A program made the translations under genes and the position numbers. Below the pieces are notes generated by a model, which was not told the origin of the DNA, did not search any database, and was given only the letters and a program-made list of their open reading frames with translations. From Escherichia coli (GTDB taxonomy: Bacteria > Pseudomonadota > Gammaproteobacteria > Enterobacterales > Enterobacteriaceae): a stretch of DNA of 64,000 bases. This document shows positions 2,825 to 64,000 of this stretch, in pieces (the first letter of the stretch is position 1; each line of letters starts with the position of its first letter). The DNA lies in assembly GCF_030013595.1 (NCBI RefSeq), contig NZ_CP122771.1; one strand, 5' to 3'.

Positions 2825-2958
2825 CTGGCCCTGAAGTTGTATATCAGCCGGCAATGCCGGCGGGCTTTCTGTATTCAAAATCTGCCTGTAAAACGAGTGC
2901 CCTGTGCGTGAAAAGGGATGGGCGGTAGCGTGTCAGAACATGTCGGGAGGAATATTCC

Positions 2959-3180: not shown

Positions 3181-3339
3181 GTCAGTCGCAGAACATAGTG
3201 ATTTAATTCCGGATGAACATGAGTGGATATTCAGAAAACAGAAATCTTTGTATATGCGCCGGGAAATGGCGCGTTAATTACAGGTATTCCCTTCATGGCT
3301 ACCGCATTTCTCGCTTTATTTTTCAACTAAGGAATTCAT

Positions 3340-7968: not shown

Positions 7969-7993
7969 AACTACTAATTCTGAAGGATTTTTT

Positions 7994-8455: not shown

Positions 8456-8484
8456 ATGTGTAAACAAAAACAGAGGAGGGTGTA

Positions 8485-8937: not shown

Positions 8938-8964
8938 ATTGTAATAATGCCATCAGGATATATC

Positions 8965-32860: not shown

Positions 32861-33116
32861 TGTAAATAAAAAGCATACTTATTGGCTGGAGTGACGCCTT
32901 CGTGCTTCTGTAGTAAAAAGCGGGAAAGGCAGGTAATAGTCAGCAACAGGGAATGTGGTATTATCGCGGCGGGTGTCTGAGCCTTTCTGGTTCAGGCAAG
33001 ACGCAGGTACCAGAAATGCGAAGACCCCACTCGTTAATCCATTAACTCGTGAGGCCTGCATGAAGTACCTTAACACTACTGATTGTAGCCTCTTCCTTGC
33101 AGAGAGGTCAAAGTTT

Positions 33117-33266
33117 ATGACGAAATATGCCCTTATCGGGTTGCTCGCCGTGTGCGCCACGGTGTTGTGTTTTTCACTGATATTCAGGGAACGGTTATGT
33201 GAGCTGAATATTTACAGGGGAAATACAGTGGTGCAGGTAACTCTGGCCTACGAAGCACGGAAGTAA
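33117..33266 (+). CDS. srnB: Hok-family type I toxin (SrnB/PndA-like)
   Basis: 50-aa peptide MTKYALIGLLAVCATVLCFSLIFRERLCELNIYRGNTVVQVTLAYEARK; overlapping upstream leader ORF analogous to mok. Confidence 0.8.
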   Translation: MTKYALIGLLAVCATVLCFSLIFRERLCELNIYRGNTVVQVTLAYEARK

Positions 33267-33798: not shown

Positions 33799-33984
33799 CT
33801 AAAATGTAGCGACATCACATTCTTGCCTGTTTCTGGTGTGCGTGATAGATTGCTGATCGTTTAAGGAATTTTGTGGCTGGCCACGCCGTAAGGTGGCAGG
33901 GAACTGGTTCTGATGTGGATTTACAGGAGCCAGAAAAGCGAAAACCCCGATAATCTTTCTATGTTTGGCGACGAAGAAGATTAC

Positions 33985-34080
33985 CGGGGCCATCTAAAAA
34001 CCGTATAGCCAACAATTCAGCTATGCGGGGAGTATAGTTATATGCCCGGAAAAGTTCAAGACTTCTTTCTGTGCTCACTC
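33985..34080 (-). ncRNA. copA: CopA antisense RNA region (approximate)
   Basis: Position between copB and repA1 where CopA/CopT lies in IncFII replicons; boundaries not determined. Confidence 0.3.
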
Positions 34081-45364: not shown

Positions 45365-45592
45365 TACAGAGGCAGGCGGTGGAGGCCGCCTGTCAGCCCG
45401 CGCGAAAACCCCTGGCAGGCTGGCGCCTGCCGGAAGGGAAGCGGGCCACGCTGGCGCGTCGCCCGTTACCCTTCCCGTTTGTGATGTGTCCGGAATGTTT
45501 TTTTCTGATGGTATGACCCTGTTCCTGTTGTTGTTGTTGTTCTTTTCTCTGCTGCCCTGATTCTGACTACTGCAGTGTTGTCCTGTCTGCCT

Positions 45593-46165
45593 GCGCACCT
45601 TCGGCTCCCGGCTGCCTGGCGGCATCCGGTCGTCAGGCCCGACTCCGACAGGCAGCTGCTGGCGCACCCGCCAGTCTCCGCCGAACCCGCTGGCGCGGTT
45701 TCGGGCTGTCGCTACGGTCCGATGCGTGAAAACCCCGGGCTTGCAGCGACCGTTCCGGTCGCGCCACCCTTGTCGCGCCGTGGCCTGCGCTCCCGGCATC
45801 CCGGCAAAAGGCCGCCGGGATGTAAGGCGCAACGCCGTTTCGCGCACGCGCTCTCCGTCGTTGCGGCGGGTCCCTGCTCATTGCCTGCCGGGTGCCACAC
45901 ACCCGTATGAGTCCCTGTCGCCGGGGGCTGATACAGCCACAACCTGCCGCACTGACTGTCCAGGGTAAATGAACAGCCCACAAAATTTTTTACCCAAAAC
46001 CCGGTAAAAAATTTTGCGTTCTGCCCGGGACAGGTGCGTCAGGCCGTGGCAGTGATGCCCCTTGCGGCGAAGGTTCTCAAACGGGTGAAGTTCATACCAC
46101 AGGGAATACAGCAGCAGGTTCCCGCGAAACGTCAAAACCGCGGCTCCCGAAACTCAACGGGTGAT
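45593..46165 (+). repeat. Frpo-like leading-region repeat, copy 1 (hairpin 45979-46018)
   Basis: About 570 bp GC-rich unit also at 49012-49465 and 59340-59925; 14-bp perfect stem caaaattttttacc/ggtaaaaaattttg. Confidence 0.8.
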
Positions 46166-46395
46166 GTTCTTTAAAAATCAGGATTTATTTCAGGCTCCGG
46201 CAATATGCATTTATTTGTTCTGTCAGTCATCCGGCTGGCAGGTAATGAGAACGCAGGAACAGAAGGAGGAAAACACCGGAGAACGTCAGACGCAGATATG
46301 AAAAAAGCAGGTCAGGGACCTGCTTAATCCACACCGCAGAGACTGCACGAACAGTCTTTACGGTTTCATTAATTAACGTCATAAGAGGCTAAATT

Positions 46396-46677: not shown

Positions 46678-48039
46678 ATGACATTAGCAGCAATCACCAT
46701 GACCGCCCCGGAAGCCGCCAGCCCTGTGCAGATGTACCGCGCGACCTACTCACCGGATGACAACAAACTGCGCCTGTATGCCGTGTCACGTCTTGACCCG
46801 GAGACGTATAAAAAAGTGCATGATGCCGGTTTCCGCTGGGCACCAAAACAGGAGCTGTTTGTCGCGCTAGCCTGGACACCGGGCCGGGAAGACGTGCTCC
46901 TCTCACTTGCCGGAGAGATTGAGGATGAAGACAGCACGCTCGCTGAACGTCAGGAAGCACGGGCGGAGCGGTTTACCGGATACAGCGGAAAGCGGGCCAG
47001 TGAATCCGCACAGGCACTTGATGAAGTGGAAAGACTGGCCGCGATGATCCCGCCCGGTCAGCCCATTCTTGTGGGGCATCACAGCGAACGCCGCACCCGT
47101 CGTGATGCGCAGCGTATTGAAAACGGCATGAAACGAGCAGTGATGCTCTTTGAACGTGCGGAATACTGGGAAGAGCGGGCGCGGTCGGCACGGCTTCACG
47201 CGAAGTATAAAGAACGTCCGGACGTTCGCTGGCGTCGCATCAAAAAAATCGAAGCTGATTTGCGCAAGGCTGAAAAGACCATCGCACAGTCGCAGAAATA
47301 TCTGACGATGTGGCGGGCTGAATCGCTGGATCTGAATATGGCAAAATTCATCAGCAGTTATGACCGTATCAGTGCCTGTTTCCCGCTGGATACGTATCCG
47401 CGCCCGGCAGAAAAAAGCCAGTATGAAGGGAGCCGGTCGTTATGGTCGGCCCTGGATGATGACATCATCACCACGGAGCAGGCCCGCGAAATTGCGATCC
47501 GCTGTCATGAACGGCAGATTCAGCATCAACAACGCTGGGTTAACCACTATCAGAACCGCCTGATCTATGAGCGTACCATGCTGGACGAAAGCGGCGGCGT
47601 GGTTACCCGGACACAGGATTTTGAGCCGGGCGGACAGGTTTTCAGCCGGGGCGAGTGGCTGACCATCATCCGTGTGAACAAAAGCAACGGGGCGGTGAGT
47701 TCAGTCACAACGCCGAATTACAGTTTCCTCGGGTACAGCGGCACGATGAAAGTGACGCCCGATCGCATCACGGACTACAAAGCACCATCGGCAGAAGAGG
47801 CTGCCGTCGCCAGCCAGGCCGCGAAGCGTCCGCCGGTAGTCAACTATCCGGGGGAAGGTTTCCGGGAAATGACAAAGGCACAGTGGGCCGCCCTGCCCCG
47901 GGACTGTAAGGCCGTGCGCAGTGTGGCAGAAGCAGAAGACCACGGGGCATACCGCTACCGCCGCACAATGGACAATAATTTCCGTCTGGTGAATGTGTAT
48001 ATCACCGACATGAAAATTACGGAAATCCCACAGAAATAA
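46678..48039 (+). CDS. Conserved leading-region hypothetical protein
   Basis: 453-aa ORF with GGAGAA RBS. Confidence 0.6.
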   Translation: MTLAAITMTAPEAASPVQMYRATYSPDDNKLRLYAVSRLDPETYKKVHDAGFRWAPKQELFVALAWTPGREDVLLSLAGEIEDEDSTLAERQEARAERFTGYSGKRASESAQALDEVERLAAMIPPGQPILVGHHSERRTRRDAQRIENGMKRAVMLFERAEYWEERARSARLHAKYKERPDVRWRRIKKIEADLRKAEKTIAQSQKYLTMWRAESLDLNMAKFISSYDRISACFPLDTYPRPAEKSQYEGSRSLWSALDDDIITTEQAREIAIRCHERQIQHQQRWVNHYQNRLIYERTMLDESGGVVTRTQDFEPGGQVFSRGEWLTIIRVNKSNGAVSSVTTPNYSFLGYSGTMKVTPDRITDYKAPSAEEAAVASQAAKRPPVVNYPGEGFREMTKAQWAALPRDCKAVRSVAEAEDHGAYRYRRTMDNNFRLVNVYITDMKITEIPQK

Positions 48040-48085
48040 GGTATATCCCCCCGGGAAATCCCCGGGGGATGACGGAGATAATGAC

Positions 48086-48649
48086 ATGCACAGTCAGTTA
48101 AGAGAACGTATCCGGCTGATGCGCGCAAGGCTGGATAACGCCGCGCCGGTTGCTGAAATCCGGGCTGAATCTCAGCTTTTTGTGACTCCTGCCCCGGTCT
48201 GTGATCGCCTGGTGACGCTGGCGGAGATCAGCAACCGTGATCACATTCTGGAACCCTCTGCCGGCACCGGGGCCATACTGCGGGCGATTCGGGATACCGC
48301 GCCGGGGGCCATGTGTGATGCGGTGGAAATCAACAGCGGGCTGGTCCGGTATCTGCGGGAAAATTTTAACGGTGTCAGGGTTCAGTGTGGCGACTTCATG
48401 GAATGGCAGCCGGTGCAGTATTACAGCCGGGTTATCATGAATCCGCCGTTCAGCCACGGGCAGGATATCCGGCATATCCTGCGGGCCTTTTCCCTGTTGC
48501 GTCCGGGTGGCGTGCTGGTCGCCGTCTGTCTCAACGGACCACGCCAGCAGGAGAAGCTGTTGCCGTTTTCTGACGTCCGCGAGGAGCTGCCGCGCGGCAC
48601 GTTTGCTTATACCCGTGTTCCGACGATGATTATTCGTCTGCGGGCCTGA
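48086..48649 (+). CDS. Small orphan N6-adenine DNA methyltransferase-like protein
   Basis: 187 aa; SAM-binding EPSAGTG followed by NPPF catalytic motif. Confidence 0.75.
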   Translation: MHSQLRERIRLMRARLDNAAPVAEIRAESQLFVTPAPVCDRLVTLAEISNRDHILEPSAGTGAILRAIRDTAPGAMCDAVEINSGLVRYLRENFNGVRVQCGDFMEWQPVQYYSRVIMNPPFSHGQDIRHILRAFSLLRPGGVLVAVCLNGPRQQEKLLPFSDVREELPRGTFAYTRVPTMIIRLRA

Positions 48650-48830
48650 AGACGCCGGGCAGGCGGGAGGATAAATGCCTGTCTGTCCGCGCCGGGAAAA
48701 GACCGCGCGCCGGTGGCGCTGAAAGGGGCCGCGCTGACGCGCCGCCCCTTTCATTACGCGGACGTTCTGACGGGGGCTTCTGTCTTTTCAGACCTGTCAT
48801 TTGCCTGTTACTGATGATGTTGTTGTTCCT

Positions 48831-48866
48831 GCTACTGCTACTGCTACTGCTACTGCTACTGCTACT
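48831..48866. repeat. Hexanucleotide microsatellite (gctact)x6
   Basis: Direct reading; related (gtt)x5 run at 45523-45542 in the equivalent position before Frpo-like copy 1. Confidence 0.85.
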
Positions 48867-49011
48867 GTTCTTCTTTTTTCTGATGCTCTCATTACTGTCT
48901 GTTTTGTTGTTCTCCTGCTTATGCCTTTTCCGGGCGTCCCCCTGGCGGGGCGGGCTGTCGTGAACGGAGCCAGCGAAGCTGTCTCCGCCCTGGCGGGCTT
49001 CCATCCCTGAC

Positions 49012-49465
49012 GCCAAACCCCCTGGCTTGCAGCGACCGTTCCGGTCGCGCCGCCTCTGTCGCGCCGTGACCTGCGCTCCCGGCATCCCGGCAAAAGGCCG
49101 CCGGGATGTGAGGGGCAACGCCGTTTCGCGCACGCGCTCTTCGTCGTTGCGGCGGGTGCCTGCCCGTTGTTGTATCCGGTGCCCTGCACCCGTTTAAGCC
49201 CCTGTCGCCGGGGGCAAAGACAGCCACAACCGTCTCCGCCAGTCCAGGGGTGAAATGCACATCCCACAAAAGTTTTTGCCCAAAAGCCGGCAAAAACTTT
49301 TGTGGTCTGCCCCCGGACAGTCGTTTCCGGCCGTGGCAGTGATGCCCCTTGCGGCGAAGGTTCTCAAACGGGTGATGGTTAATACCGGAGGGAACAAACG
49401 GCAGGTCCCCGCAAAACGTCAAAACCGCGGCTCCCGAAACTCAACGGGTGATGGGGGCTGAAAAC
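49012..49465 (+). repeat. Frpo-like leading-region repeat, copy 2 (hairpin 49264-49305), immediately upstream of ssb
   Basis: Perfect 17-bp stem ccacaaaagtttttgcc/ggcaaaaacttttgtgg; unit ends at ssb RBS. Confidence 0.8.
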
Positions 49466-49486
49466 ATCAACAGAAGGAGACACATC

Positions 49487-50017
49487 ATGGCAGTTCGTGG
49501 AATTAACAAGGTCATTCTTGTCGGTCGCCTGGGAAAAGATCCGGAAGTCCGTTACATCCCCAACGGGGGCGCAGTGGCAAACCTGCAGGTGGCCACGTCA
49601 GAAAGCTGGCGTGACAAACAGACGGGGGAGATGCGGGAGCAGACGGAATGGCATCGCGTGGTGTTGTTCGGCAAGCTCGCGGAAGTGGCTGGTGAATATT
49701 TGCGTAAGGGTGCGCAGGTCTACATCGAGGGGCAACTCCGTACCCGTAGCTGGGACGACAACAACGGCGTCACCCGTTACATCACTGAAATCCTTGTTAA
49801 AAACACGGGCACCATGCAGATGCTGGGACGTGCCGCAGGTACTCAGACTCAGCCGGAAGAGGCGCAACAGTTCAGCGGTCAGCCTCAGCCGGAATCACAG
49901 CCGGAACCGAAAAAAGGTGGCGCGAAAACGAAAGGCCGTGGACGTAAGGCCGCGCAGCCGGAGCCTCAGCAGCCGTCTGAACCCGCGTATGACTTCGATG
50001 ACGACATTCCGTTCTAA
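49487..50017 (+). CDS. ssb: Plasmid single-stranded DNA-binding protein
   Basis: [25 protein letters not shown]-fold N-terminus; Gly/Gln/Pro-rich tail ending DDDIPF. Confidence 0.95.
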
Positions 50018-50066
50018 CGAAAGACAGTGACAACCGCCCCGTCCAGTGCGGGGCATCACCGGAGAT

Positions 50067-50306
50067 ATGAGGATGAGCGAATATTTCAGAATATTTCAGG
50101 GGCTGCCTGACGGCTCCTTTACCCGCGAACAGGCTGAAGCCGTTGCCGCACAGTACCGGAATGTCTTTATCGAGGATGATCAGGGAACGCATTTTCGCCT
50201 GGTTGTCCGCAATAACAGTGGCCTGGTCTGGCGTACCTGGAATTTTGAGGACGGTGCCGGGTACTGGATGAACCATGTCATCCGGAATTTCGGCATTCTT
50301 AAGTAA
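50067..50306 (+). CDS. Hypothetical small protein
   Basis: About 80-aa ORF downstream of ssb; start approximate. Confidence 0.5.
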
Positions 50307-50369
50307 GAGAGGTGCCGGACGGGAACGCGTCCGGCAGACATACAACCATCCCGGTCAAAGGAGAAATAT

Positions 50370-52328
50370 ATGTCAGTTACAGAGTCTAAGACAAAAACGG
50401 AGCGTAAATCCAGCCGTAAACCTGCAAAAACGCAGGAAACAGTCCTGTCTGCCCTGCTGGCGCAGACGGAGGAAGTGAGCGTGCCGCTGGCCTCACTGAT
50501 TAAATCACCGCTGAATGTGCGCACGGTGCCGTATTCTGCGGAGTCCGTCAGCGAACTGGCGGACTCCATTAAAGGTGTCGGCCTGTTACAGAATCTGGTT
50601 GTTCATGCCCTGCCAGGTGACCGTTACGGTGTCGCCGCAGGCGGTCGCCGACTGGCAGCACTCAACATGCTGGCAGAGCGCAACATCCTTCCGGCTGACT
50701 GGCCTGTACGCGTGAAGGTCATTCCGCAGGAGCTGGCGACTGCCGCATCGATGACCGAGAACGGTCAGCGTCGGGATATGCACCCTGCCGAACAGATTGC
50801 CGGATTCCGCGCAATGGCGCAGGAAGGCAAAACACCTGCACAAATCGGTGATTTGCTGGGCTATTCACCCCGCCACGTTCAGCGAATGCTGAAACTGGCT
50901 GACCTTGCGCCTGTCATCCTCGATGCGCTGGCAGAAGACCGCATCACCACCGAACACTGTCAGGCGCTGGCGCTGGAGAACGACACCGCGCGTCAGGTGC
51001 AGGTGTTTGAAGCCGCCTGTCAGTCGGGATGGGGCGGTAAACCGGAAGTACAGACCATTCGTCGTCTGGTGACCGAAAGTGAAGTGGCGGTGGCGGGGAA
51101 CAGTAAATTCCGCTTCGTGGGGGCTGATGCCTTCTCGCCAGACGAACTGCGCACCGATTTGTTCAGCGACGACGAAGGTGGCTATGTGGACTGCGTGGCG
51201 CTCGATGCCGCCCTGCTGGAAAAACTCCAGGCTGTCGCAGAGTTCCTTCGGGAAGCCGAAGGCTGGGAATGGTGCGCCGGACGCATGGAGCCTGTCGGTG
51301 AGTGCCGTGAGGATGCCGGAACATACCGCTGTCTGCCGGAGCCGGAAGCGGTGCTGACGGAGGCGGAAGAAGAACGTCTGAACGAACTGATGACGCGTTA
51401 CGACGCGCCGGAAAACCAGTGTGAGGAATCTGACCTGCTGGAAGCAGAAATGAAGCTGATGCGCTGCATGGCGAAGGTCAGGGCGTGGACGCCGGAGATG
51501 CGTGCCGGAGGTGGAGTGGTGGTGTCCTGGCGTTATGGCAACGTGTGTGTCCAGCGTGGTGTGCAGTTGCGCAGTGAGGATGACGTGGCTGACGACGCTG
51601 ACCGTACGGAACAGGTGCAGGAGAAAGCGTCAGTGGAGGAAATCAGTCTGCCACTGCTGACGAAAATGTCTTCCGAACGCACGCTGGCAGTCCAGGCAGC
51701 ACTGATGCAGCAACCGGACAAATCTCTGGCACTGCTGGCATGGACGCTCTGCCTGAATGTGTTTGGCAGCGGAGCGTACAGTAAACCAGCACAAATCAGC
51801 CTGGAATGTAAACATTATTCGCTGACCAGCGATGCGCCATCGGGGAAGGAAGGTGCCGCATTCATGGCGCTGATGGCAGAAAAAGCCCGTCTTGCTGCCC
51901 TGTTACCGGAGGGATGGTCACGGGACATGACGACATTCCTGTCACTCAGTCAGGAGGTGCTGTTATCCCTGCTCAGTTTCTGCACCGCATGCAGCCTTAA
52001 CGGTGTCCAGACCCGTGAGTGTGGTCACACGTCACGCAGTCCGCTTGACACGCTGGAAACCGCCATCGGCTTTCACATGCGAGACTGGTGGCAGCCGACA
52101 AAAGCAAACTTCTTCGGACACCTGAAAAAGCCGCAGATTATCGCAGCCCTGAATGATGCCGGACTGTCCGGTGCCGCACGGGATGCAGAGAAGATGAAGA
52201 AAGGTGATGCGGCTGAACATGCAGAGCACCATATGAAAGACAACCGCTGGGTGCCTGGCTGGATGTGTGCACCACGTCCACAGACGGATACCACTGAACG
52301 CACCGATAACCTGGCTGATGCCGCCTGA
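50370..52328 (+). CDS. ParB-like nuclease domain protein
   Basis: 652 aa; N-terminal ParB/Srx-like box (VHALPGDRYGVAAGGRRLAAL). Confidence 0.8.
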   Translation: MSVTESKTKTERKSSRKPAKTQETVLSALLAQTEEVSVPLASLIKSPLNVRTVPYSAESVSELADSIKGVGLLQNLVVHALPGDRYGVAAGGRRLAALNMLAERNILPADWPVRVKVIPQELATAASMTENGQRRDMHPAEQIAGFRAMAQEGKTPAQIGDLLGYSPRHVQRMLKLADLAPVILDALAEDRITTEHCQALALENDTARQVQVFEAACQSGWGGKPEVQTIRRLVTESEVAVAGNSKFRFVGADAFSPDELRTDLFSDDEGGYVDCVALDAALLEKLQAVAEFLREAEGWEWCAGRMEPVGECREDAGTYRCLPEPEAVLTEAEEERLNELMTRYDAPENQCEESDLLEAEMKLMRCMAKVRAWTPEMRAGGGVVVSWRYGNVCVQRGVQLRSEDDVADDADRTEQVQEKASVEEISLPLLTKMSSERTLAVQAALMQQPDKSLALLAWTLCLNVFGSGAYSKPAQISLECKHYSLTSDAPSGKEGAAFMALMAEKARLAALLPEGWSRDMTTFLSLSQEVLLSLLSFCTACSLNGVQTRECGHTSRSPLDTLETAIGFHMRDWWQPTKANFFGHLKKPQIIAALNDAGLSGAARDAEKMKKGDAAEHAEHHMKDNRWVPGWMCAPRPQTDTTERTDNLADAA

Positions 52329-52382
52329 TGAACAACCACACCGCCCCGCCGGAGACGGGGCGGCAGCAAGGGAGATACCGTG

Positions 52383-52817
52383 ATGAAAACTGAACTGACC
52401 CTGAATGTATTACAGACCATGAGTGCACAGGAATATGAAGATATCCGGGCAGCCGGAAGTGATGAACGTCGTGAGCTGACACACGCCGTGATGCGGGAAC
52501 TGGATGCGCCGGACAACTGGACGATGAACGGCGAGTACGGCAGCGAGTTCGGCGGCTTTTTCCCCGTCCAGGTCCGCTTCACGCCTGCCCACGAACGTTT
52601 TCACCTGGCGTTATGTTCACCGGGCGATGTCTCTCAGGTCTGGGTGCTGGTTCTGGTGAATGCCGGTGGTGAGCCGTTTGCGGTGGTTCAGGTGCAGCGG
52701 CGGTTTGTACCGGAAGCTGTCAGCCATTCACTGGCACTGGCGGCGTCACTGGATGGGCAGGGGTACAGCGTTAACGACATCATCCATATCCTGATGGCGG
52801 AAGGAGGTCAGGCATGA
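52383..52817 (+). CDS. psiB: PsiB, plasmid SOS inhibition protein
   Basis: Starts [13 protein letters not shown], matching F PsiB. Confidence 0.9.
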
Positions 52818-53533
52818 GCGCACGTTCACAGGCACTGGTTCCCCTCAGCGCAGAGCAACAGGCCGCATGGCGGGCGGTGGCGGAGACGGAAAAACGCCGC
52901 CATCAGGGAAACTCGCTGGCGGAATATCCGTATGCGGGGGCGTTTTTCCGCTGTCTGAACGGAAGCCGCAGGATATCGCTGTCTGACCTGCGATTTTTCA
53001 TGCCGTCCCTGACCGCAGAAGAACTGCACGGCAACCGTCTTCAGTGGCTGTATGCCATCGATGTGCTGATTGAAACACAGGGCGAGGTCTGCCTCCTTCC
53101 CCTTCCCGGTGATGCAGCAGAGCGGCTGTTCCCGTCGGTGCGGTTCCGTGTCAGGGAACGCAGTCGCCATAAATCCGCGCTGGTCATGCAGAAGTACAGC
53201 CGCCAGCAGGCACGGGAGGCAGAGCAGAAAGCCCGTGCGTACCAGGCGCTGGTTGCTCAGGCTGAAATCGAACTGGCATTCCATTCGCCGGAGACGGTCG
53301 GAAGCTGGCATGCCCGCTGGAGTGACCGGGTGGCGGAGCATGACCTGGAAACGCTGTTCTGGCAGTGGGGTGAGCGTTTTCCGTCACTGGCCGGAATGGA
53401 ACGCTGGCAGTGGCAGGATATGCCGTTCTGGCAGGTCATCGCAGAGGCTGGTATGGCGGCAAGGGTGGTCGGTCATGCTGTTCGTGAGATGGAGCGGTGG
53501 ATGGTGCCGAACAAACTCCGGGAGGCAGCGTGA
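52814..53533 (+). CDS. psiA: PsiA
   Basis: 239-aa ORF overlapping psiB stop; matches F PsiA. Confidence 0.9.
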
Positions 53534-53566
53534 TGCGTAAGCGGCTCGCCAGAACCGTATTGATAT

Positions 53567-55138
53567 TTACTGAGAGGTCAGATCAACTTTCCAGGGCAAC
53601 AGATCGCGTACCCGGTTTGCCGGCCAATCCTGGATATGCTCAATGACGTAACGCAGCCATTTTTCTGGTTCCACATTGTTCAGACGGCATGTGCCGATCA
53701 GCGAGTACAACACCGCCGCATGTTCGCCACCGCTGTCGGAACCCGCGAAGAGCCAGTTTTTCCGGCCTACGGCCACTCCCCGTAAGGCGTTCTCTGCGAT
53801 GTTGTTGTCGATTTCCACCCAGCCATTACTGCAGTACACGTTCAGGGCCTCCCACTGTTTCAGCAGGTATGCGAACGCTTTTGCCGTATCCGAGTGACGC
53901 GACAGTGTTTTCATCTGTTCCTGTATCCAGTCATACAGTGACTGCATCAGTGGAGCCGCTCTGGCTTTTCTTGCTGCCAGACGCTGTTCTGCTGAACATC
54001 CCCGGACTTCTGCCTCGATGACATACAGTTCACCGATACGCTGCAGGGCTTCCGTGGTGATGTCGGTTGGCACTCTTGCATGCACATCGTGGATTTTTCT
54101 CCGGGCATGGGCCATACACGCGGCTTCCGTTATTCTGCCGGATTCGTATAACGCCCGGTAACCACCGTAAGCATCTGCCTGAAGCACACCGCTGTAACCG
54201 GCCAGGTGATTCTGTGGATGGATACCTTTCCGGTCCGGGCTGTACGCGAACCAGACCGCCGGGGGCATCTGTGAACCGGCGTTACGGTCATCACGGACAT
54301 AGACCCACAGCCGGGCAGTTCTTGTTTTACCACTGCCCGGCTCCTGGACCGGAACGGGGATATCATCCGCATGGACTTTACCGGGCATCAGCACATACTG
54401 GCGCAGCACGTCATACAGCGGCTCCAGCAGTTCAGCAACGGCACCGGTCCAGCGCCCCAGCGTGGCGCGGCTCAGTTCCACGCCCTGACGAAGGTATATT
54501 TCTGACTGGCGGTATAACGGCAGATGGTCTGCATACTTCCCGGTGACGATATGAGCCAGAAGCCCCGCTCCGGCATAACTGCGTGCAATGGGTTTTGAAG
54601 GTACTGGTGCCTGCACGATATGGTCGCACCGGCAACAGGCCAGTTTCGGACGTTGTGTTTCGATAACCTTAAAAGCGCTGCTGATAAGCTCCAGTTGCTC
54701 TGACACATCACACCCCAGAGGACTGAGGTCACCACCACAGGCCGGGCAGCATTCCTCTTCCGGCCGGATGACCCGGGTTTCACGGGGAAGTGAGGCCGGT
54801 AACGGCTTACGGGCTGAAGACTGGCGCAGGGCGGATGGCAGTACCGGGTCATATTGCTCATCCAGCGTTTCCGCCATTTCTTCCTGAAGTGCGCTGATTC
54901 GCTCCTGGGCTTCCTGTATCTGCCGTTCGGTTTTAGCGCGAAGTTTTTCTGAGCTTTTACCGAACTGCATGCGCTGCAGTTTCGCAACCAGCGCCTTCAG
55001 CCGGTTGATTTCGGAAGCATAAGCCGCCACCCGCTGTGAGAGCAGGCGGTTGTATTTCGCCATCTGGCGGATGGTGTCCTGTTGCGTCTGCAACAGTGCC
55101 CGCAGGCGGGCATTCTCATGAGCAAGTGAGGTGTCCAT
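53567..55138 (-). CDS. IS66-family transposase (OrfC)
   Basis: 523 aa with N-terminal coiled coil, CxxC...CxxC zinc motif and DDE-type core. Confidence 0.9.
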
Positions 55139-55157
55139 ATCCTCACTTTACAACGGG

Positions 55158-55505
55158 TTATATGCGGATGCCAGCGCGTTCCGTTCGTTTCGGGTGCTTC
55201 CAGTCGATGCCTTCGAGAAGCATGGACAACTGAGCCGGAGTAAGGTGAACCTTTCCATCGCGGGTGACCGGCCAGACGAAGCGGCCCCGCTCCAGGCGTT
55301 TGGTGAAGAGGCACAGTCCGTCACTGTCAGCCCACAGCACTTTTATCTGGTCACCCCGGCGTCCGCGGAAGATGAACAGATGCCCGGAGAACGGGTCATC
55401 CTTCAGGACGTTCTGAACTTTTGAGGCCAGGCCGTTAAAGCCATTTCGCATATCGGTGATACCGGCAACCAGCCAGATACGCGAACCGGCAGGGAGAGAT
55501 ATCAT
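55158..55505 (-). CDS. IS66 OrfB (TnpB-like accessory protein)
   Basis: 115-aa ORF with the conserved IS66 OrfB-like N-terminus. Confidence 0.85.
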   Translation of the reverse strand: MISLPAGSRIWLVAGITDMRNGFNGLASKVQNVLKDDPFSGHLFIFRGRRGDQIKVLWADSDGLCLFTKRLERGRFVWPVTRDGKVHLTPAQLSMLLEGIDWKHPKRTERAGIRI

Positions 55506-56155
55506 CAGTGGCTGCTCCCTTTCATTTCGCGGATAAGTGTCTGTAATAACGCCGGTGTCAGTTCACCTTTCAGCCTGAGAGTTCCGGCCGGCAGAACCAG
55601 CTCGCAGCACAGACTGTCTGGCAGTGTATTTATCTGTTCAGGTATCTGCACTGGTGCCGGGATTTTATTATCCGGCTCCGGAGTTAACGTCACGGGAAGT
55701 AGCGATGTTTCATGTTCGCCGGGCGGTTGCAGGCCACCGTTACGCCAGAGATGCCGCCAGTTAAAGAGCAGGTTATCGTTAATTCCATTCTCTCGAGCTA
55801 TTTGTGCGACACAAGCACCGGGTAAAAGAGTTTGCTGAACCAGTCTCCATTTAAACTCCGGTGAAAATCGGTTCCGGCGGGGTTTCTCTGCTTTCACAGG
55901 CTGAGTCACGGTCGGGGCTGAAGGGTATCGCCCCGGGAAAAGAGCCCGGGCCAGTTGCCCGCAGGAATATTCACCGGAAAGAGGCCAGTCAGTGAATACC
56001 TGGTGAAATCGCCTCACCAGAGAAAAAATGGCGGTTTTGCTGACACCGGTCTGCGCAGAAATGCGCGGGTACGACAGTGACTCGTCAAATCTCAGCTGTA
56101 GCACACGCAGGATCAATTCCGGATTGTCTGCCAGTACCGCTTTTCGTGCATTCAT
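55505..56155 (-). CDS. IS66 OrfA-like HTH protein
   Basis: 216-aa ORF start-overlapping orfB; longer than typical OrfA. Confidence 0.7.
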   Translation of the reverse strand: MNARKAVLADNPELILRVLQLRFDESLSYPRISAQTGVSKTAIFSLVRRFHQVFTDWPLSGEYSCGQLARALFPGRYPSAPTVTQPVKAEKPRRNRFSPEFKWRLVQQTLLPGACVAQIARENGINDNLLFNWRHLWRNGGLQPPGEHETSLLPVTLTPEPDNKIPAPVQIPEQINTLPDSLCCELVLPAGTLRLKGELTPALLQTLIREMKGSSH

Positions 56156-56444
56156 CTTAAATGTCCCTTTACTGCGAAAATGGACATTAGTATCGGAAAC
56201 AGGAAAGGGAGGCGAAAGACGGTTTAAATGAGACGGTTACCGTGATGCGGCAACAATCACATGGATTTCCCGTGAACGGTCTGAATGAGCGGATTATTTT
56301 CAGGGAAAGTGAGTGTGGTCAGCGTGCAGGTATATGGGCTATGATGTGCCCGGCGCTTGAGGCTTTCTGCCTCATGACGTGAAGGTGGTTTGTTGCCGTG
56401 TTGTGTGGCAGAAAGAAGATAGCCCCGTAGTAAGTTAATTTTCA

Positions 56445-56510
56445 TTAACCACCACGAGGCATCCCTATGTCTAGTCCACATCAGGATAGCCTCTTACCGC
56501 GCTTTGCGCA
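56445..56510 (-). ncRNA. sok: Sok-like antisense RNA region (approximate)
   Basis: Position antisense to mok/hok leader directly upstream of hok. Confidence 0.3.
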
Positions 56511-56524
56511 AGGAGAAGAAGGCC

Positions 56525-56683
56525 ATGAAACTACCACGAAGTTCCCTTGTCTGGTGTGTGTTGATCGTGTGTCTCACACTGTTGATATTCACTTATCTGA
56601 CACGAAAATCGCTGTGCGAGATTCGTTACAGAGACGGACACAGGGAGGTGGCGGCTTTCATGGCTTACGAATCCGGTAAGTAG
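56525..56683 (+). CDS. hok: Hok/FlmA type I toxin
   Basis: 52-aa peptide [52 protein letters not shown] read directly (below ORF-track length cutoff); overlapping mok-like frame 56467-56679. Confidence 0.85.
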
Positions 56684-56994
56684 CAACCTGGAGGCGGGCG
56701 CAGGCCCGCCTTTTCAGGACTGATGCTGGTCTGACTACTGAAGCGCCTTTATAAAGGGGCTGCTGGTTCGCCGGTAGCCCCTTTCTCCTTGCTGATGTTG
56801 TACGGGCATGAACAACCTGACTTCAGGAAGGTCGTTTCCCTTCAGGAACGGGGATGAACGCGCGCCTGCGGCGCCCGTTCTTTTCCCCCGCCTTCTCTGG
56901 TTATGGCCTGTCAGAAATCACATCACCTTCCCTGTGATTATTCTCTTTTTCTTCCTGCTCTGATTCTGACTACTGCAGTGTTGTCCTGTCTGCC

Positions 56995-59339
56995 GGGTCG
57001 GGTAGCAGCGGCACATTGCTGCGCCGCCGCCCCCTAAGAACGGAGCGTGCGAGTTTTCCCGCACTCCGCTCAAGCCTTTATAAGTGCTTTCGGTGAGCAC
57101 CGGCTTCCCTGCTGTGTAACTGTCGGTGGCAGTTCGGATGTAACAACTCGAGATTGGTCAGTTCGTCACTGCCGCCCATAACTTTCCTGATCCGGTGATG
57201 TATATTCCATCCGGTCTGGTTGGTTATGAGTTGTCCGCACTGCGGACAGTGTTTCCCCTGCCTCTTCCAGAGTTGAACTACTGTCTTCATCTTCTTTGAT
57301 TTGCCTTTCCAGATTAGATCCAGACGACGTTCAAAGTAGATTTCCATTCCGGGGGTGTATGGTGTTGCTTCGCCTTTGATTTTTATATGGCGCTTTATCG
57401 GTGTTTCCATTGCCCGGAAGAGTGTCAGAATTTTCCCTTCCGGGGTTATGGCTTTAAAGATCCAGCGCCTGCCTTCAAAGGAGAAGTATCGTCCGGCGAT
57501 CCACCGCAATCCTTTCCGGGGATGCCGTCTTACACACCATCGCCATATAGCTCGCCAGATTTGGGTGTCGACATAATTAAATGTTTCTTTCGCCACGACG
57601 TGTCGGTGATAGGTAGCCCATCCCCGGATCACCGGGTTTAGCTGGCCTATCAGTTTCCATGCCGGGAGCGTCGGATTGCGTTTAATTATTTCTCTGACTT
57701 TACAGAGGAAGTTCTTCAGGTTTTTCTTCGACGGTTTAATCAGCATTTTACCGTTGTACTTCCTGACGTTCTGCCCTAAAAAGTCGAAGCCTTTATCTAT
57801 ATGTGTGATCGCTGTTTTTTCTTCCGACAGTTCCAGCCCTCGTTCGCGCATGAAAGCTGCAATCAGTGGTCTGACCTCATTTTCCAGCAATTCACGGGAG
57901 CTGCCTGAACAGATGAAATCATCAGCATATCTCACATAATTCACCTGGTGCTTTGCACTGTGATAACCACTTTTCCTGAACGTTTGCATCAGTTCCTTCT
58001 CCAGTCCGTCCAGAGCCATGTTGGCGAGAACAGGGGATATGATGCCTCCCTGCGGTGTCCCGCTGTTCGTATGGTTAAACACGCCTCTTTCCATGTAACC
58101 TGCTTTCAACCATTTTTTAAGCAGTCTCCTGTCCATCGGAATATGGGAAAGCAGCCAGTCATGGCTGATGTTATCGAAACACCCTTTAATATCGCCCTCC
58201 AGTATCCATTTGGGCGATACTTTCTGGCTCATCCGCAGAAAAATGGACTCAATGGCGTCATGCGTGCTGCGCATTGGTCTGAAACCATAGCTGTTATGGT
58301 CAGCAGTGGTCTCGGATACGGGTTCCAGAGCCAGCAGCCACAGTGCCTGCATGGCCCGGTCCCTCATTGTGGGTATGCCCAGCGGTCGCGTTTTGCCGTT
58401 TGATTTTGGGATATGTATTCGCCGTAGTGGCTGTGGCCTGTAACCACACAGATTCAGGCTGCATATTCCTTCCCATTTCTCCTTCGGTGTGTGCCATATT
58501 TTTCCGTCAATACCGGGTGTCCTTTTACCGGTATTTTCAGTTACACGCCTGACAGCCACGGCTTTGCCGGAGAATGAGCGGGTGAGGATGCGCTGTAGTT
58601 CTCTGACCTGCCGCCATTGTTGCTGTCGGGTTGCCTTTGCAATCCGTAACTGTAGCTTTCGCACCCGGGCATGGCATGCTTTCCAGTTTATGGTGTGCCA
58701 GCCTGTCGGGTGGGGTATCGTGGACACACTGATGTGTGTATTCATCTCGCTGATATCCTTTTGACTGCTTTACAGCTTTTCATGCAATTAAAGACCAGAC
58801 GGAAGTCTGCCCGCTTTCGCGTCGGGGAACCTGCCCCGTATCCCGGTTATTACGGCCGGGCATTCGCTTTTTCCGTCCTCCTATGCCCGCACCGCTAACA
58901 GTGTTCCTTGCGGTTCACCTGCCTGTGAGGCAGCGATACGGGTTTACCAGGTTCCGCTTAACATACAGAGGGTCAGGGCGGGTTCTGTCTCTTCACCGGG
59001 GGTCTCTGCGCCCATGTGCTCCCTGTGCGCGAGGTAGCAACCGGACCCCGTACCTTTTGGTTCAGGCCTGTCAGCATCTTTGGCCTGTTGCCGATAACGG
59101 TGTTTATCAACAGTTCACATGTGTTAACCCTTCTGACCAGCCTTGCTCTCCTGCCGCATGATGCTTGCAGCAAGGTAAAGCCCCTCACGGGGCTTTACCC
59201 GGGCTGACGCCCGGCTCTCGTTGTCCCGGGAGCTTCAGACCCCGCCGTTGCCGGCAACGCCTGTCCCGGTAGGCTACAGCTAATGGGATAGCTGGTTTTA
59301 TCAATGTAAAACAATACGTTAAGCGACTTCCTGTCGCAC
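56995..59339 (-). mobile_element. Group II intron, boundaries +/-10 bp
   Basis: 5' end GTGCGACAGG on minus strand; domain V-like hairpin GAGCGGAGTGCGGGAAAACTCGCACGCTCCGTTC near 3' end (+ coords about 57030-57063); encodes RT/maturase/HNH ORF. Confidence 0.8.
57078..58745 (-). CDS. Group II intron-encoded reverse transcriptase/maturase with HNH endonuclease
   Basis: 555 aa; RT motifs incl. YADD (VRYADDFIC); C-terminal CPQCG...H..H HNH. Confidence 0.9.
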   Translation of the reverse strand: MNTHISVSTIPHPTGWHTINWKACHARVRKLQLRIAKATRQQQWRQVRELQRILTRSFSGKAVAVRRVTENTGKRTPGIDGKIWHTPKEKWEGICSLNLCGYRPQPLRRIHIPKSNGKTRPLGIPTMRDRAMQALWLLALEPVSETTADHNSYGFRPMRSTHDAIESIFLRMSQKVSPKWILEGDIKGCFDNISHDWLLSHIPMDRRLLKKWLKAGYMERGVFNHTNSGTPQGGIISPVLANMALDGLEKELMQTFRKSGYHSAKHQVNYVRYADDFICSGSSRELLENEVRPLIAAFMRERGLELSEEKTAITHIDKGFDFLGQNVRKYNGKMLIKPSKKNLKNFLCKVREIIKRNPTLPAWKLIGQLNPVIRGWATYHRHVVAKETFNYVDTQIWRAIWRWCVRRHPRKGLRWIAGRYFSFEGRRWIFKAITPEGKILTLFRAMETPIKRHIKIKGEATPYTPGMEIYFERRLDLIWKGKSKKMKTVVQLWKRQGKHCPQCGQLITNQTGWNIHHRIRKVMGGSDELTNLELLHPNCHRQLHSREAGAHRKHL

Positions 59340-59925
59340 GCGCACCTTCGGCTCCCGGCTGCCTGGCGGCATCCGGTCGTCAGGCCCGACTCCGACAGGC
59401 AGCTGCTGGCGCACCTGCCAGTCTCCGCCGAACCCGCTGGCGCGGTTTCGGGCTGTCGCTACGGTCCGATGCGTGAAAACCCCGGGCTTGCAGCGACCGT
59501 TCCGGTCGCGCCGCCTCTGTCGCGCCGTGGCCTGCGCTCCCGGCATCCCGGCAAAAGGCCGCCGGGATGTAAGGCGCAACGCCGTTTCGCAAACCGCGCT
59601 TCACGTCGTTGCGGCGGGTCCCTGCCCGTTGTTGTGTCCGGTGCCATTCACCTGTTTAAGCCCCTGTCGCCGGGGGCATAGACAGCCACAACCGTCTCCG
59701 CCAGTCCAGGGGTGAAATGCACATCCCGCAAAACTTTTTGCCCAGAAGCAGGCAAAAACTTTTGCGGTCTGCCCCCGGACAGTCGTTTCCGGCCGTGGCA
59801 GTGATGCCCCATGCGGCGAAGGTTCTCAAACAGGTGATGGTGAATACCGGAGGGAACAAAAGGCAGGTCCCCGCAAAACGTCAAAACCGCGGCTCCCGAA
59901 ACTCAACAGATGATGGGGGCTGAAA
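59340..59925 (+). repeat. Frpo-like leading-region repeat, copy 3 (hairpin 59726-59767)
   Basis: Stem ccgcaaaactttttgcc/ggcaaaaacttttgcgg; unit ends at RBS of 59948 ORF. Confidence 0.8.
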
Positions 59926-59947
59926 ACCAGAGAGAGGAGAAAGCAGG

Positions 59948-60235
59948 ATGAGTACCCGAAATATCCACGTTAACACCGCGTCGTACACGCTTCTTGTTGC
60001 CGGGAAGAAAAAAAACACCGGGGAAGAGTGGGACGTCCTGGAATTCAGCAGCCTGACTGAGCTGAAAAAATATCGCAAAAGCCACCCGGAAAAGATGGCC
60101 TTCAGTTATAGCTACGCGCTCAGTCAGGGTGTGGATAAGCAGTTCCGCCATATCAACATTGCGGAAGCCGATCACTTCAAACAGTTCCTGCGTCAGATTA
60201 AGCGTGCCGGCCTCGATATCCGGGCGATCTGCTGA
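59948..60235 (+). CDS. Hypothetical small protein
   Basis: 95-aa ORF with GAGGAG RBS immediately after Frpo-like copy 3. Confidence 0.5.
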   Translation: MSTRNIHVNTASYTLLVAGKKKNTGEEWDVLEFSSLTELKKYRKSHPEKMAFSYSYALSQGVDKQFRHINIAEADHFKQFLRQIKRAGLDIRAIC

Positions 60236-60352
60236 CCGGATGTGATGAATACCCCTCCTGATTGTTGCAATCTTGTTAATGGAGATCGGGGGGATGATAT
60301 TAAGCGGAAAAATTTTTTATTAAATTTATTCTTTCATAAAGGAGTAGCTGTT

Positions 60353-61174
60353 ATGCGATTAGCTTCCCGTTTTGGTCGGTATAATTCCATCCGCCGTGAA
60401 CGTCCTTTAACGGATGATGAATTAATGCAGTTCGTGCCTTCGGTATTTTCCGGTGATAAACATGAGTCCCGGAGTGAACGTTATACGTATATTCCAACAA
60501 TCAATATCATCAATAAGTTACGTGATGAAGGTTTCCAGCCATTCTTTGCCTGTCAGAGTCGGGTTCGTGATTTGGGACGTCGCGAATACAGTAAACATAT
60601 GTTACGTCTTCGCAGGGAAGGGCATATTAACGGACAGGAAGTTCCTGAAATTATCCTGCTTAATTCACATGATGGTTCATCCAGTTATCAGATGATCCCC
60701 GGAATTTTTCGTTTTGTCTGCACAAATGGCCTGGTGTGCGGAAATAATTTTGGCGAAATCCGCGTTCCACATAAAGGTGATATTGTCGGGCAGGTTATCG
60801 AGGGAGCGTATGAAGTGCTCGGTGTCTTTGATAAGGTCACTGATAATATGGAGGCGATGAAAGAAATTCATCTTAACAGTGACGAGCAACATTTATTTGG
60901 CAGAGCTGCACTGATGGTCAGGTATGAAGATGAAAATAAAACGCCAGTGACACCTGAACAGATAATTACTCCCCGTCGTCGGGAAGACAAACAGAACGAT
61001 CTCTGGACAACCTGGCAGCGGGTTCAGGAGAATATGATAAAAGGTGGATTATCGGGGCGAAGTGCCTCCGGGAAAAATACCAGGACAAGAGCCATTACAG
61101 GTATTGATGGTGATATAAGAATCAACAAGGCGTTATGGGTGATTGCCGAACAGTTCAGAAAGTGGAAGTCATGA
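60353..61174 (+). CDS. Conserved leading-region hypothetical protein
   Basis: 273 aa from ATG 60353 with AAGGAG RBS. Confidence 0.55.
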   Translation: MRLASRFGRYNSIRRERPLTDDELMQFVPSVFSGDKHESRSERYTYIPTINIINKLRDEGFQPFFACQSRVRDLGRREYSKHMLRLRREGHINGQEVPEIILLNSHDGSSSYQMIPGIFRFVCTNGLVCGNNFGEIRVPHKGDIVGQVIEGAYEVLGVFDKVTDNMEAMKEIHLNSDEQHLFGRAALMVRYEDENKTPVTPEQIITPRRREDKQNDLWTTWQRVQENMIKGGLSGRSASGKNTRTRAITGIDGDIRINKALWVIAEQFRKWKS

Positions 61175-61185
61175 TAATATAAGTA

Positions 61186-61214
61186 AAGCCCCGAAAAAAT
61201 TTTCGGGGTTTTAC
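61186..61214 (+). terminator. Rho-independent terminator-like hairpin
   Basis: ccccgaaaaaattttcgggg followed by TTTT. Confidence 0.6.
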
Positions 61215-61470
61215 TTATATTATCATTTTTCGGCATTGCTGTGTCGTCTGATATACCTCAATTTCATCGACCGGCTTTCCGGTTGTCTGTAAATATTGTG
61301 CCCGCGAAAAATGGTCTGGCAGGAGGCTGCGCAGTTACCGGGTATATATAAGATGGGTTCCCGCTTCGCGGGGCTTCGGCCAGTCAGTATTGTCACTCAT
61401 ATGATATTTTTGTGTGTGGCCTTCCATGCCGCTTTTGCGGCATAACCGGTATCTGACAATGTCTGTAAGA

Positions 61471-61983
61471 TTAATTGTTCTGCACGCTGTTAATTTCCGG
61501 AAGTGATTTCTTCGTGGCCGGAAGCCGGATACCTTTACTGCTTTTTATCCCGGTATAAATCCGGTAAACCTCTGATGCGTAGGCAAGACGTCTCTGGTTC
61601 TGGCGTTCGGATTTCCTGAATCCTGCATTGTATGCACCAACGGCCTCCCAGGTGACGCCCCATTTTTTAAATGCTATTGCCAGATAATAAGCACCGGTAT
61701 AAATGTTCATGCAGGGATCTGTTGTCAGATGTTCCGGCTTAATTCCATAGCGGGCCAGTTCGTTAAAATGCTGGGAATCTACCTGCATCAGTCCGCTGCC
61801 ATATCCCGTTACCGGATTAATACCGATGGCATTAACCCGGTAACGGGATTCTTTCCATGATATTGCTCTCAGTAAATCAGGATCTATTTTGTAATCCCGG
61901 CCTGCAAGATCAAAGCAATCAGTGGCATGGCAGATCTCATTTATAAACATCAGGCAGATGGCTAACATCCATTTTTTCATTTT
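61471..61983 (-). CDS. Gene X / orf169 lytic transglycosylase
   Basis: 170 aa from [12 protein letters not shown]; signal peptide; adjacent to oriT as in F. Confidence 0.85.
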
Positions 61984-61989
61984 TCCACC

Positions 61990-62390
61990 TCTGGTGACTT
62001 TATCCGTAAATAATTTAACCCACTCCACAAAAAGGCTCAACAGGTTGGTGGTTCTCACCACCAAAAGCACCACACACTACGCAAAAACAAGTTTTTGCTG
62101 ATTTGCCTTTTAAATCATGTAATTAACAAATGCTATTTATATTTAATAATTCTGAATTATTAAATAGAGAGTCGTTGGCGATCCTGTTACGACCCTATAG
62201 CGACCCTTATTAGGATCAGTACTGACAATTTTCATGAAAAACATTGATATATATTAGGGGCGCCACTAGCGCCGGATCGCATTTTTTTATAGGATGATCC
62301 TAGAGGCGCTGCTAGGAGTGTCTTTCTTACTTGTAAACACTATATGCATATTTATAGTGAAAAGTTCATTGCTTAATTATGAAAGGTTTT
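61990..62390. promoter_or_regulatory. oriT (origin of transfer) with nic region about 62060-62080 on the minus strand
   Basis: Reverse complement of 62030-62082 reads GTAGTGTGTGGTGCTTTTGGTGGTGAGAACCACCAACCTGTTGAGCCTTTTTGTGGAGTGGG, near-identical to the F/R100 nic region as remembered. Confidence 0.8.
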
Positions 62391-62395
62391 ATCTT

Positions 62396-62779
62396 ATGGC
62401 CAGAGTAATTTTGTATATCAGTAATGATGTCTATGACAAAGTAAATGCGATAGTTGAACAGCGTCGTCAGGAGGGGGCAAGAGATAAAGATATAAGTGTT
62501 TCGGGAACAGCTTCAATGCTTCTTGAACTGGGGCTTCGCGTACATCAGGCTCAGATGGAGCGTAAAGAGTCTGCATTTAATCAGACTGAGTTTAATAAAT
62601 TACTTCTTGAATGTGTTGTAAAAACACAGTCATCAGTAGCGAAAATTTTGGGTATTGAGTCTCTAAGTCCCCATGTCTCCGGGAATCCAAAGTTTGAATA
62701 TGCCAATATGGTTGAAGATATTCGTGAGAAGGTGTCATCTGAGATGGAACGATTTTTTCCAAAAAATGATGAGGAATAA
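62396..62779 (+). CDS. traM: TraM, relaxosome accessory protein
   Basis: 127 aa starting MARVILYISNDVYDKVNAIVEQRRQEGA. Confidence 0.9.
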   Translation: MARVILYISNDVYDKVNAIVEQRRQEGARDKDISVSGTASMLLELGLRVHQAQMERKESAFNQTEFNKLLLECVVKTQSSVAKILGIESLSPHVSGNPKFEYANMVEDIREKVSSEMERFFPKNDEE

Positions 62780-62882
62780 AAAAGAATTAAAAGTTGATTT
62801 ACTTCAAATAACAGGATTTTGATCTGGTTCAATTTGATGACAATTAACCACATAAAGGGTATATTAATTATGTGGTTAATGC

Positions 62883-62965
62883 CACGTTAAAAATTTAGTT
62901 TAAATCGCCGATGCAGGGAGAGCGACCTCCCTGCATCGACTGTCCATAGAATCCTTTGAGAGGAG
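62883..62965 (-). ncRNA. finP: FinP antisense RNA region (approximate)
   Basis: Perfect hairpin cgatgcagggag-agcga-cctccctgcatcg in the traJ 5' leader just before the traJ RBS. Confidence 0.55.
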
Positions 62966-62971
62966 GTTCCT

Positions 62972-63643
62972 ATGTATCCGACGGATCGTAGACAACTTAA
63001 TACTGAACGTCAAATATATTTGGATAAACAGTCTTTTGTAGATGTTTTTTCAATCCCTGCTTGCGTTCGAAATACTAATGGAGATTTTATCGGCTACAAT
63101 GAAAAATTCTCTAAAGAATTTATAGGTAGTCTTGATATCAAAGAGTGGTTTTACTCCCTTCCTGTACAAGTAGCTACATCGTTTTTAAGAGAAGAACTGG
63201 ATGCTATGTCTTTGCCTTCGTCCATGAATAAAATACAGAGCGTGGCTATAGGTGATAAACTCTGGCTGGTACAATTTATACCATTAATATATGGGGAGGT
63301 GGTTAATGTTTTATGGCTTTTTTTCTGCAAAAATTCTAATGTGATAGTGGATTATTGTAGAGGATTACGTTCAAATATAACAAATGACAGAATGCTTGAA
63401 TTTAAAAACAAATCAACGGAAATCCAATGGAAAGTTTTTATTCTTTATTCATTTGGTTTTTGTCATGAATCGATAGCATCTCTTTTGTCTATTACTAATG
63501 GTTCTTCCCGGAATGCAATTTCAGAAGTGTATAAGTTTTTCGGTATACATTCAAAACATGATTTGTTAATGATTTTTCATACAAGTAGGATGCATAGTTT
63601 ATTTTTTGATGAATTGTTTTTTATTTTAAAATGTGCTGAATAG
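62972..63643 (+). CDS. traJ: TraJ, transfer operon activator
   Basis: 223-aa AT-rich ORF between traM and traY. Confidence 0.8.
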
Positions 63644-63779
63644 TTGATGTTTTGTTTTTGTTAAAAACAAGGTGACATTATGTCACCTTGTTTTGTTAAT
63701 GTAATTTACTCTATTTTTGTTTCTATTTTTATGGATTCGTATAATTATATTTAATTATCTAAGTGGCTGAGGAGGAGAC

Positions 63780-64000
63780 TTGAGCAGAAATATAATAAGG
63801 CCTGCTCCGGGCAATAAAGTTTTACTGGTATTGGACGATGCTACTAATCACAAGCTCTTAGGTGCCCGGGAGCGCAGCGGGAGAACAAAAACTAATGAGG
63901 TGCTAGTCAGGTTACGTGATCATCTGAGCCGTTTTCCTGACTTTTATAATCTGGATGCAATAAAGGAGGGAACAGGGGAAACTGATTCGATAATTAAAGA
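63780..64000 (+). CDS. traY: TraY (5' part; truncated by window end)
   Basis: TTG start after GAGGAGGAG RBS; ribbon-helix-helix-like N-terminus; runs off window. Confidence 0.7.
   Translation, partial: MSRNIIRPAPGNKVLLVLDDATNHKLLGARERSGRTKTNEVLVRLRDHLSRFPDFYNLDAIKEGTGETDSIIK

Follow-up and report, generated by a model that had tools for sequence, protein, structure and literature searches.

A complete IS679/ISCro1-like insertion sequence with a perfect 8-bp target-site duplication between psiA and hok/sok

IS679 was reportedly first described from plasmid pB171 of E. coli B171 (Han et al. 2001, J Bacteriol 183:4296). ISCro1 is an IS66-family element of Citrobacter rodentium ICC168 (PMC3072379), and for IS66 itself, on Agrobacterium Ti/At plasmids, a tnpABC organisation and 8-bp duplications were reported (PMC6778807). 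In addition, a copy on pYUAHP7-MCR that is 100% identical to the element studied here was published under the description 'IS679-like', flanked by direct repeats of 8 bp (PMC10832210). The insertion sequence (IS) in the window, that is, the whole 64-kb stretch of DNA that was analysed, belongs on the evidence of its sequence to the IS679/ISCro1 group of the IS66 family. It is an element of a known kind, its type of insertion is already known, and the event is routine plasmid biology. The features of the locus, in window coordinates, are given below.

52814..53533, plus strand: psiA, intact, 239 aa (Pfam PsiA, E=1.2e-37)
53529..53536: left copy of the target-site duplication, CGTGATGC, read from the window; the empty site has one copy
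53537..56240, genes on the minus strand: complete IS679/ISCro1-like IS66-family insertion sequence, 2,704 bp, from its sequence and from copies elsewhere
53537..53561: terminal inverted repeat at the tnpC end (GTAAGCGGCTCGCCAGAACCGTATT), 17/25 positions matching the other arm
53567..55138, minus strand: tnpC, DDE transposase, 523 aa (LZ_Tnp_IS66, zf-IS66, DDE_Tnp_IS66 and the IS66 C-terminal element)
55158..55505, minus strand: tnpB, IS66 accessory protein, 115 aa (TnpB_IS66, NF033819)
55505..56155, minus strand: tnpA, IS66 accessory HTH protein, 216 aa (HTH_Tnp_1, IS66_access_TnpA)
56216..56240: terminal inverted repeat at the tnpA end (reverse complement GTAACCGTCTCATTTAAACCGTCTT), from comparison of the arms
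56241..56248: right copy of the target-site duplication, CGTGATGC, read from the window
56316..56345, plus strand: promoter-like site TGGTCA-18-TATGAT, placed where the hok promoter is expected
56351..56683, plus strand: hok/sok/mok locus (Rfam sok, ORFs)
56351..56527: sok (Rfam match)
56467..56679, plus strand: mok ORF
56525..56683, plus strand: hok ORF

The genes tnpA, tnpB and tnpC are all full length and intact, and all three open reading frames matched IS66-family models, which confirms the family assignment made in an earlier reading of this DNA from the sequence only (hereafter the sequence-only reading). TnpC matched PF03050 (DDE_Tnp_IS66) with E=9.5e-104 over profile positions 1-283 of 284 and reached 476 bits with NCBIfam transpos_IS66 (cut-off 180); TnpB matched PF05717 (TnpB_IS66) with E=2.8e-40 as well as NF033819, and TnpA reached 283.6 bits with NF038385 (IS66_access_TnpA). 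The tnpB ATG shares one base with the tnpA stop codon (TGATG at 55505), and 19 nt lie between the tnpB stop and the tnpC start. The features of the family, namely a DDE TnpC with tnpA and tnpB upstream, GTAA inverted repeats and an 8-bp duplication, were all observed.

A search of the plasmid collection PLSDB (72,556 plasmids) with the 2,704-bp IS as the query gave 2,743 matching plasmid records; in 1,290 of them 80% or more of the element is present, and in 100 the identity is 99% or higher. At least 25 plasmids carry IS positions 1-2704 at 100% identity. Identical or near-identical copies were found at many sites in IncF, IncI, IncX4 and IncHI2 plasmids, each flanked by a duplication of its own, and the window IS is probably an active element.

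To obtain the empty site, the window sequence without the IS and without one copy of the 8-mer was used as the query. Uninterrupted matches were found in thousands of F-like plasmids; among the best 5,000 records, the match extends in one place over 80% or more of the query in 3,841. The top match, at about 99.8-99.9% identity, was NZ_CP122686.1, a pig ETEC plasmid from Belgium, in which the left and right alignments overlap on a single CGTGATGC, so that the comparison with IS-free relatives suggested in the sequence-only reading gives one copy of the 8-mer at the corresponding place. Window positions 47031-64000 are collinear with this plasmid at 99.86-100% identity, and only two insertions, the IS and a group II intron, set the two sequences apart. 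The IS is present once in the window. The proposal of a simple insertion without later rearrangement was thus borne out, and no observation spoke against it. No residue of PsiA differs between the window and NZ_CP122686.1 (0/239), and the 748 bp from the IS to the intron, with hok, sok and mok inside, are 100% identical.

On the left side, psiA finishes with GCA GCG TGA, and the stop codon (53531-53533) lies within the left CGTGATGC (53529-53536), where it had been placed before. Since the stop codon is part of the duplicated 8 bp, the psiA reading frame is preserved by the left copy. On the right side, sok (56351-56527) and the Hok ORF (56525-56683) lie beyond the IS, which therefore separates psiA from hok/sok, also in agreement with the earlier reading. 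The promoter-like site at 56316-56345, which we take to be the hok promoter from the known start of the R1 hok mRNA, is located just upstream of the Rfam sok match, and 75 bp of native sequence are present between the IS end and its -35 hexamer. The IS genes are directed away from hok and are convergent on psiA. The spacer between the IS end and the hok promoter-like site showed neither an outward-facing promoter-like site nor a terminator-like site, and a search around the end of psiA (53300-53700) gave no terminator-like site either. Because of this lack of a terminator-like site, read-through from psiB-psiA into hok/mok may have existed before the insertion and may now be lost. An effect of the IS on hok expression is possible, with no indication of one, and both neighbours are intact in sequence.

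A rather unlikely explanation, though the best surviving of the alternatives, is that the insertion is functionally consequential and has been kept for a changed expression of hok/sok or psiA, for example through removed read-through, convergent transcription from tnpC into psiA or a displaced upstream promoter context. The missing terminator-like sites are in line with this, as are the 2.7 kb of antisense-oriented genes that now lie between psiA and hok and the IS679-like insertions inside hok in two relatives, with the target duplications CACGAAAA (CP122741.1) and GTTGATAT (a second plasmid); because these relatives carry insertions within hok, an altered or lost hok function is evidently tolerated. 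However, the core promoter-like site and the sequences of sok, mok and hok match those of the empty-site plasmid at 100% identity, the native 75 bp upstream of the -35 hexamer have been kept, and since no second record with the insertion turned up, nothing points to spread or selection. With an intact psiA frame, an unchanged hok/sok, a promoter-like site 75 bp away and IS genes directed as described, the insertion is most likely selectively near-neutral.

The junctions were searched with queries of 160 bp across each IS end in PLSDB and in 5,426 complete E. coli genomes. No uninterrupted junction match was found in the 72,556 PLSDB plasmids or in the 5,426 complete E. coli genomes, and a 40-nt exact junction string was not found in JGI metagenome contigs. 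Two candidates for a shared insertion were rejected. In CP122741.1, a top match with 100% of the query covered at 99.9% identity, the near-identical IS sits 360 bp rightward, inside hok, with the target duplication CACGAAAA. In pCss165Kan and p899037_1, for which an 81-82% match in a single piece over the right junction and a continuous BLAST alignment had pointed to the same site, the spacer is a different, diverged one and the duplication is GATTGCCC. The perfect duplication, the 100% identity to copies elsewhere and the absence of the junction from three collections uphold the view of the sequence-only reading that the insertion is relatively recent. The insertion is probably recent within the plasmid lineage, in a relative sense that sets no absolute date, and the databases may lack the junction through sampling alone.

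These searches also bear on a very improbable alternative, in which homologous recombination with another F-like plasmid, one already bearing the same insertion, brought in both the IS and its flanks. Such an exchange would be mechanistically easy, as F-like leading regions are very alike across thousands of plasmids, but no other record with the junction was found among the 72,556 plasmids, the 5,426 E. coli genomes and the JGI metagenomes, and no recombination patch is visible in the flanks, which match the empty-site relative at 99.86-100%. The original event would in any case be the same simple transposition.

The position of the IS at 53537-56240 between 8-bp copies of CGTGATGC had been proposed before, and direct reading of the window showed it to be exact to the base: 2,704 bp lie between the 8-mers, starting with GTAAGCGGCTCG and finishing with TGAGACGGTTAC. 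The imperfect GTAA-type inverted repeats were likewise found, with GTAA at the start of both arms and 17 of the 25 outermost positions identical without gaps. The ends of the IS were set without using the 8-mer repeat, by comparing the termini of copies in other plasmids. Nine copies were fetched: eight picked for 100% identity, from IncF, IncI1, IncI-gamma/K1, IncX4 and IncHI2 plasmids, and one 99.9% copy (CP122741.1). All nine have the same terminal bases, with GTAAGCGGCTCG at the start and TGAGACGGTTAC at the finish, and have perfect 8-bp repeats of their own (AAAAGAAA, ATAATTTA, ATTCTTCT, TTCCAGAT, AAAATAAT, GTTAATAT, TGTTATCT, TGTTTTTG and CACGAAAA), indicating that the boundaries of the window IS are correct and that an 8-bp duplication is usual for this element. 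Perfect 8-bp duplications were observed at 26 sites of the IS679/ISCro1 group, the site in the window included. With both strands counted, the 64-kb window holds the 8-mer CGTGATGC only 6 times, and the chance that two 8-mers match at positions fixed beforehand is 4^-8 = 1.5e-5. A chance match of the flanking 8-mers or a misplacement of the termini, for which the imperfect inverted repeats (17/25) could be cited besides the a-priori possibility, is extremely improbable given this fixed-position chance, the nine other copies with the same ends and repeats of their own and the exactly one 8-mer at the empty site, and the misidentified termini that the sequence-only reading had named as its possible flaw are excluded by these copies and this single 8-mer.

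Other insertions of the same group were also found around this locus. When 21 other IS679/ISCro1-like insertions near psiA/hok were placed on the empty-site reference, many of them clustered about 240-310 bp downstream of hok (window-equivalent 56920-56992), with 10 independent insertion events within the 73 bp of this zone. Two exact 8-bp targets in the zone were each used twice and in opposite orientations, GATTATTC in pE94-2 and a plasmid of FDAARGOS_945, and TCTTTTTC in pCPWW7-IncFII and Shigella p1538020_1; the IS variants at these targets are 51 and 65 mismatches apart (2.2-2.4%). The zone is pyrimidine-rich and lower in GC, and it lies beside a GC-rich repeat that has three copies in the leading region and is possibly an Frpo-like single-strand promoter element. 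The group II intron of the window (56997-59339, minus strand, GTGCG...AC) is inserted a few bases past the zone, and the flank in pE94-2 ceases to match the reference at the same position, after which the RT gene of a group II intron follows.

An apparent orientation bias near psiA/hok, with 12/12 fetched loci oriented the same way, was rejected as an artefact, since the search joins same-strand pieces only; 86 records with IS66-like elements near psiA/hok were found with the original query and 86 with the IS-reversed query, which makes the two orientations equally frequent. A target consensus over the 26 IS-oriented sites, with a weak AT-rich centre and a frequent C at the last base of the duplication, was too weak to be retained. 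When the hot-spot region was folded as single-stranded DNA, the z-scores were modest (-3.0 and -4.0) and were due mostly to the GC-rich part that lies right of the zone. In a literature search, no paper was found on the clustering of IS679-like elements downstream of hok, and we know of no target specificity in the IS66 family. A true regional or site preference of IS679/ISCro1-like elements about 240-310 bp downstream of hok is suggested tentatively, as a possibility somewhat short of even odds. The clustering may reflect targeting or mere tolerance of insertions in dispensable DNA. The repeated use of exact sites downstream of hok would be of interest as a possible target preference in a poorly understood IS family and, if targeting is true, the IS66 family would have a defined natural hot spot in this zone.

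For the window itself, the boundaries, the duplication, the gene content, the empty site and the sequence integrity of both neighbours are direct observations, and the preferred reading, with a rough probability of 0.93, is one transposition of an active IS679/ISCro1-group IS into the spacer after psiA, as a simple and most likely near-neutral event. The IS would have transposed once into the spacer that starts at the psiA stop codon, in the leading region of a conjugative, F-like plasmid that belongs to the pig-ETEC lineage. Staggered cleavage of the target followed by repair would have produced the 8-bp duplication CGTGATGC, with the left copy keeping the psiA frame complete and the right copy fronting an unchanged hok/sok. 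The sole plausible effect would be the blocking of transcription from psiB-psiA into hok/mok. The site is a clean case of an IS66-family element inserted in the leading region of a plasmid. It is useful mainly for annotation and as a lineage marker for the plasmid, and it shows that an insertion of 2.7 kb at these 8 bp around the psiA stop codon is possible with both adjacent genes unaltered.

Compared with the IS66 prototype, the window IS has the same three-ORF tnpABC arrangement, 8-bp duplication and terminal inverted repeats (PMC6778807). The prototype is about 2.56 kb from the coordinates of that paper, in contrast to 2,704 bp for the window IS, and it comes from another host group, so that the two are kin at the family level only. 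Copies labelled with the names IS679 and ISCro1 are much closer. In pCss165Kan, the copy with a transposase assigned by PGAP to the 'IS679 family' is likewise 2,704 bp long, and the tnpA-tnpB-tnpC order, GTAAGCG-type ends and 8-bp duplication of IS679 are common to the window IS. Nucleotide identity across the IS is 97.2% with this copy, whose label is that of PGAP and not an ISfinder reference, and the identical residues amount to 512/523 in TnpC (97.9%), 115/115 in TnpB and 210/216 in TnpA. At the tnpA end, however, the IS679-labelled copies have the repeat GTAAGCGCATCA, which differs from the GTAACCGTCTCA of the window in three of the first 12 bases. The copy in pCPWW7-IncFII, whose transposase PGAP labels 'ISCro1 family', is 97.7% identical (2.3% nucleotide divergence) and has the same GTAACCGTCTCA end as the window IS, with 216/216 identical residues in TnpA and 512/523 in TnpC. 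Under the ISfinder convention, isoforms share about 95% nucleotide or 98% amino-acid identity, or above. Because the window TnpC is equidistant from the two PGAP-labelled copies, the choice between the names IS679 and ISCro1 is a matter of nomenclature.

Independent IS679/ISCro1-like insertions in F-like plasmids were found grouped about 240-310 bp downstream of hok (plasmid loci L013-L030), with the following position in the window and in the empty-site relative L002 (NZ_CP122686.1):

56920-56992 (L002 7172-7244), both orientations: IS679/ISCro1-like insertion cluster

In this cluster, the 8-bp targets GATTATTC and TCTTTTTC were each exact and each used again in opposite orientation, and the IS variants sharing either target were 2.2-2.4% apart. 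It is possible that this zone is a target hot spot for IS679/ISCro1-like elements.

The hok coding region itself was broken by an IS679-like element in two related plasmids, indicating that the leading-region hok can be lost:

L001 (CP122741.1) 6861-9564: element within hok, target-site duplication CACGAAAA
L023 (NZ_CP128879.1) 1137-3840: element within hok, target-site duplication GTTGATAT

At the end of the window's own IS, a terminator-like hairpin spans the junction, with both flank and IS end contributing to it, and is probably due to chance:

56236-56254, minus strand: GTTGCCG-CATCA-CGGTAAC, then a T-rich tail

A complete group II intron was also observed, inserted inside an inverted repeat (GCCGGG...CCCGGC) and missing from the 99.9% identical plasmid NZ_CP122686.1. 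In another plasmid, pE94-2, an RT gene of the group II intron type comes next at the same reference point. The window's intron has these parts:

56997-59339, minus strand: complete intron, 5' end GTGCG, 3' end AC
57078-58745: its RT/maturase ORF
59146-59295: D1-D4 (Rfam)
56997-57073: D5/6 (Rfam)

Most of an F-like conjugative plasmid lies within the window, and antisense RNAs were present in its tra genes. Also observed, at 32971-33127 and 33936-34024, were a further sok/hok-type locus and an RNA resembling CopA, the latter of IncFII-type replication control.

about 62.9 kb: FinP and traJ 5'UTR

The window also holds a 450-630-bp repeat in three leading-region copies of 86-94% identity, each with small ORFs or ssb-like genes downstream:

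45543-46166: repeat copy
49015-49465: repeat copy
59476-59927: repeat copy

The three copies are candidate single-strand promoter repeats of the Frpo/ssi type.
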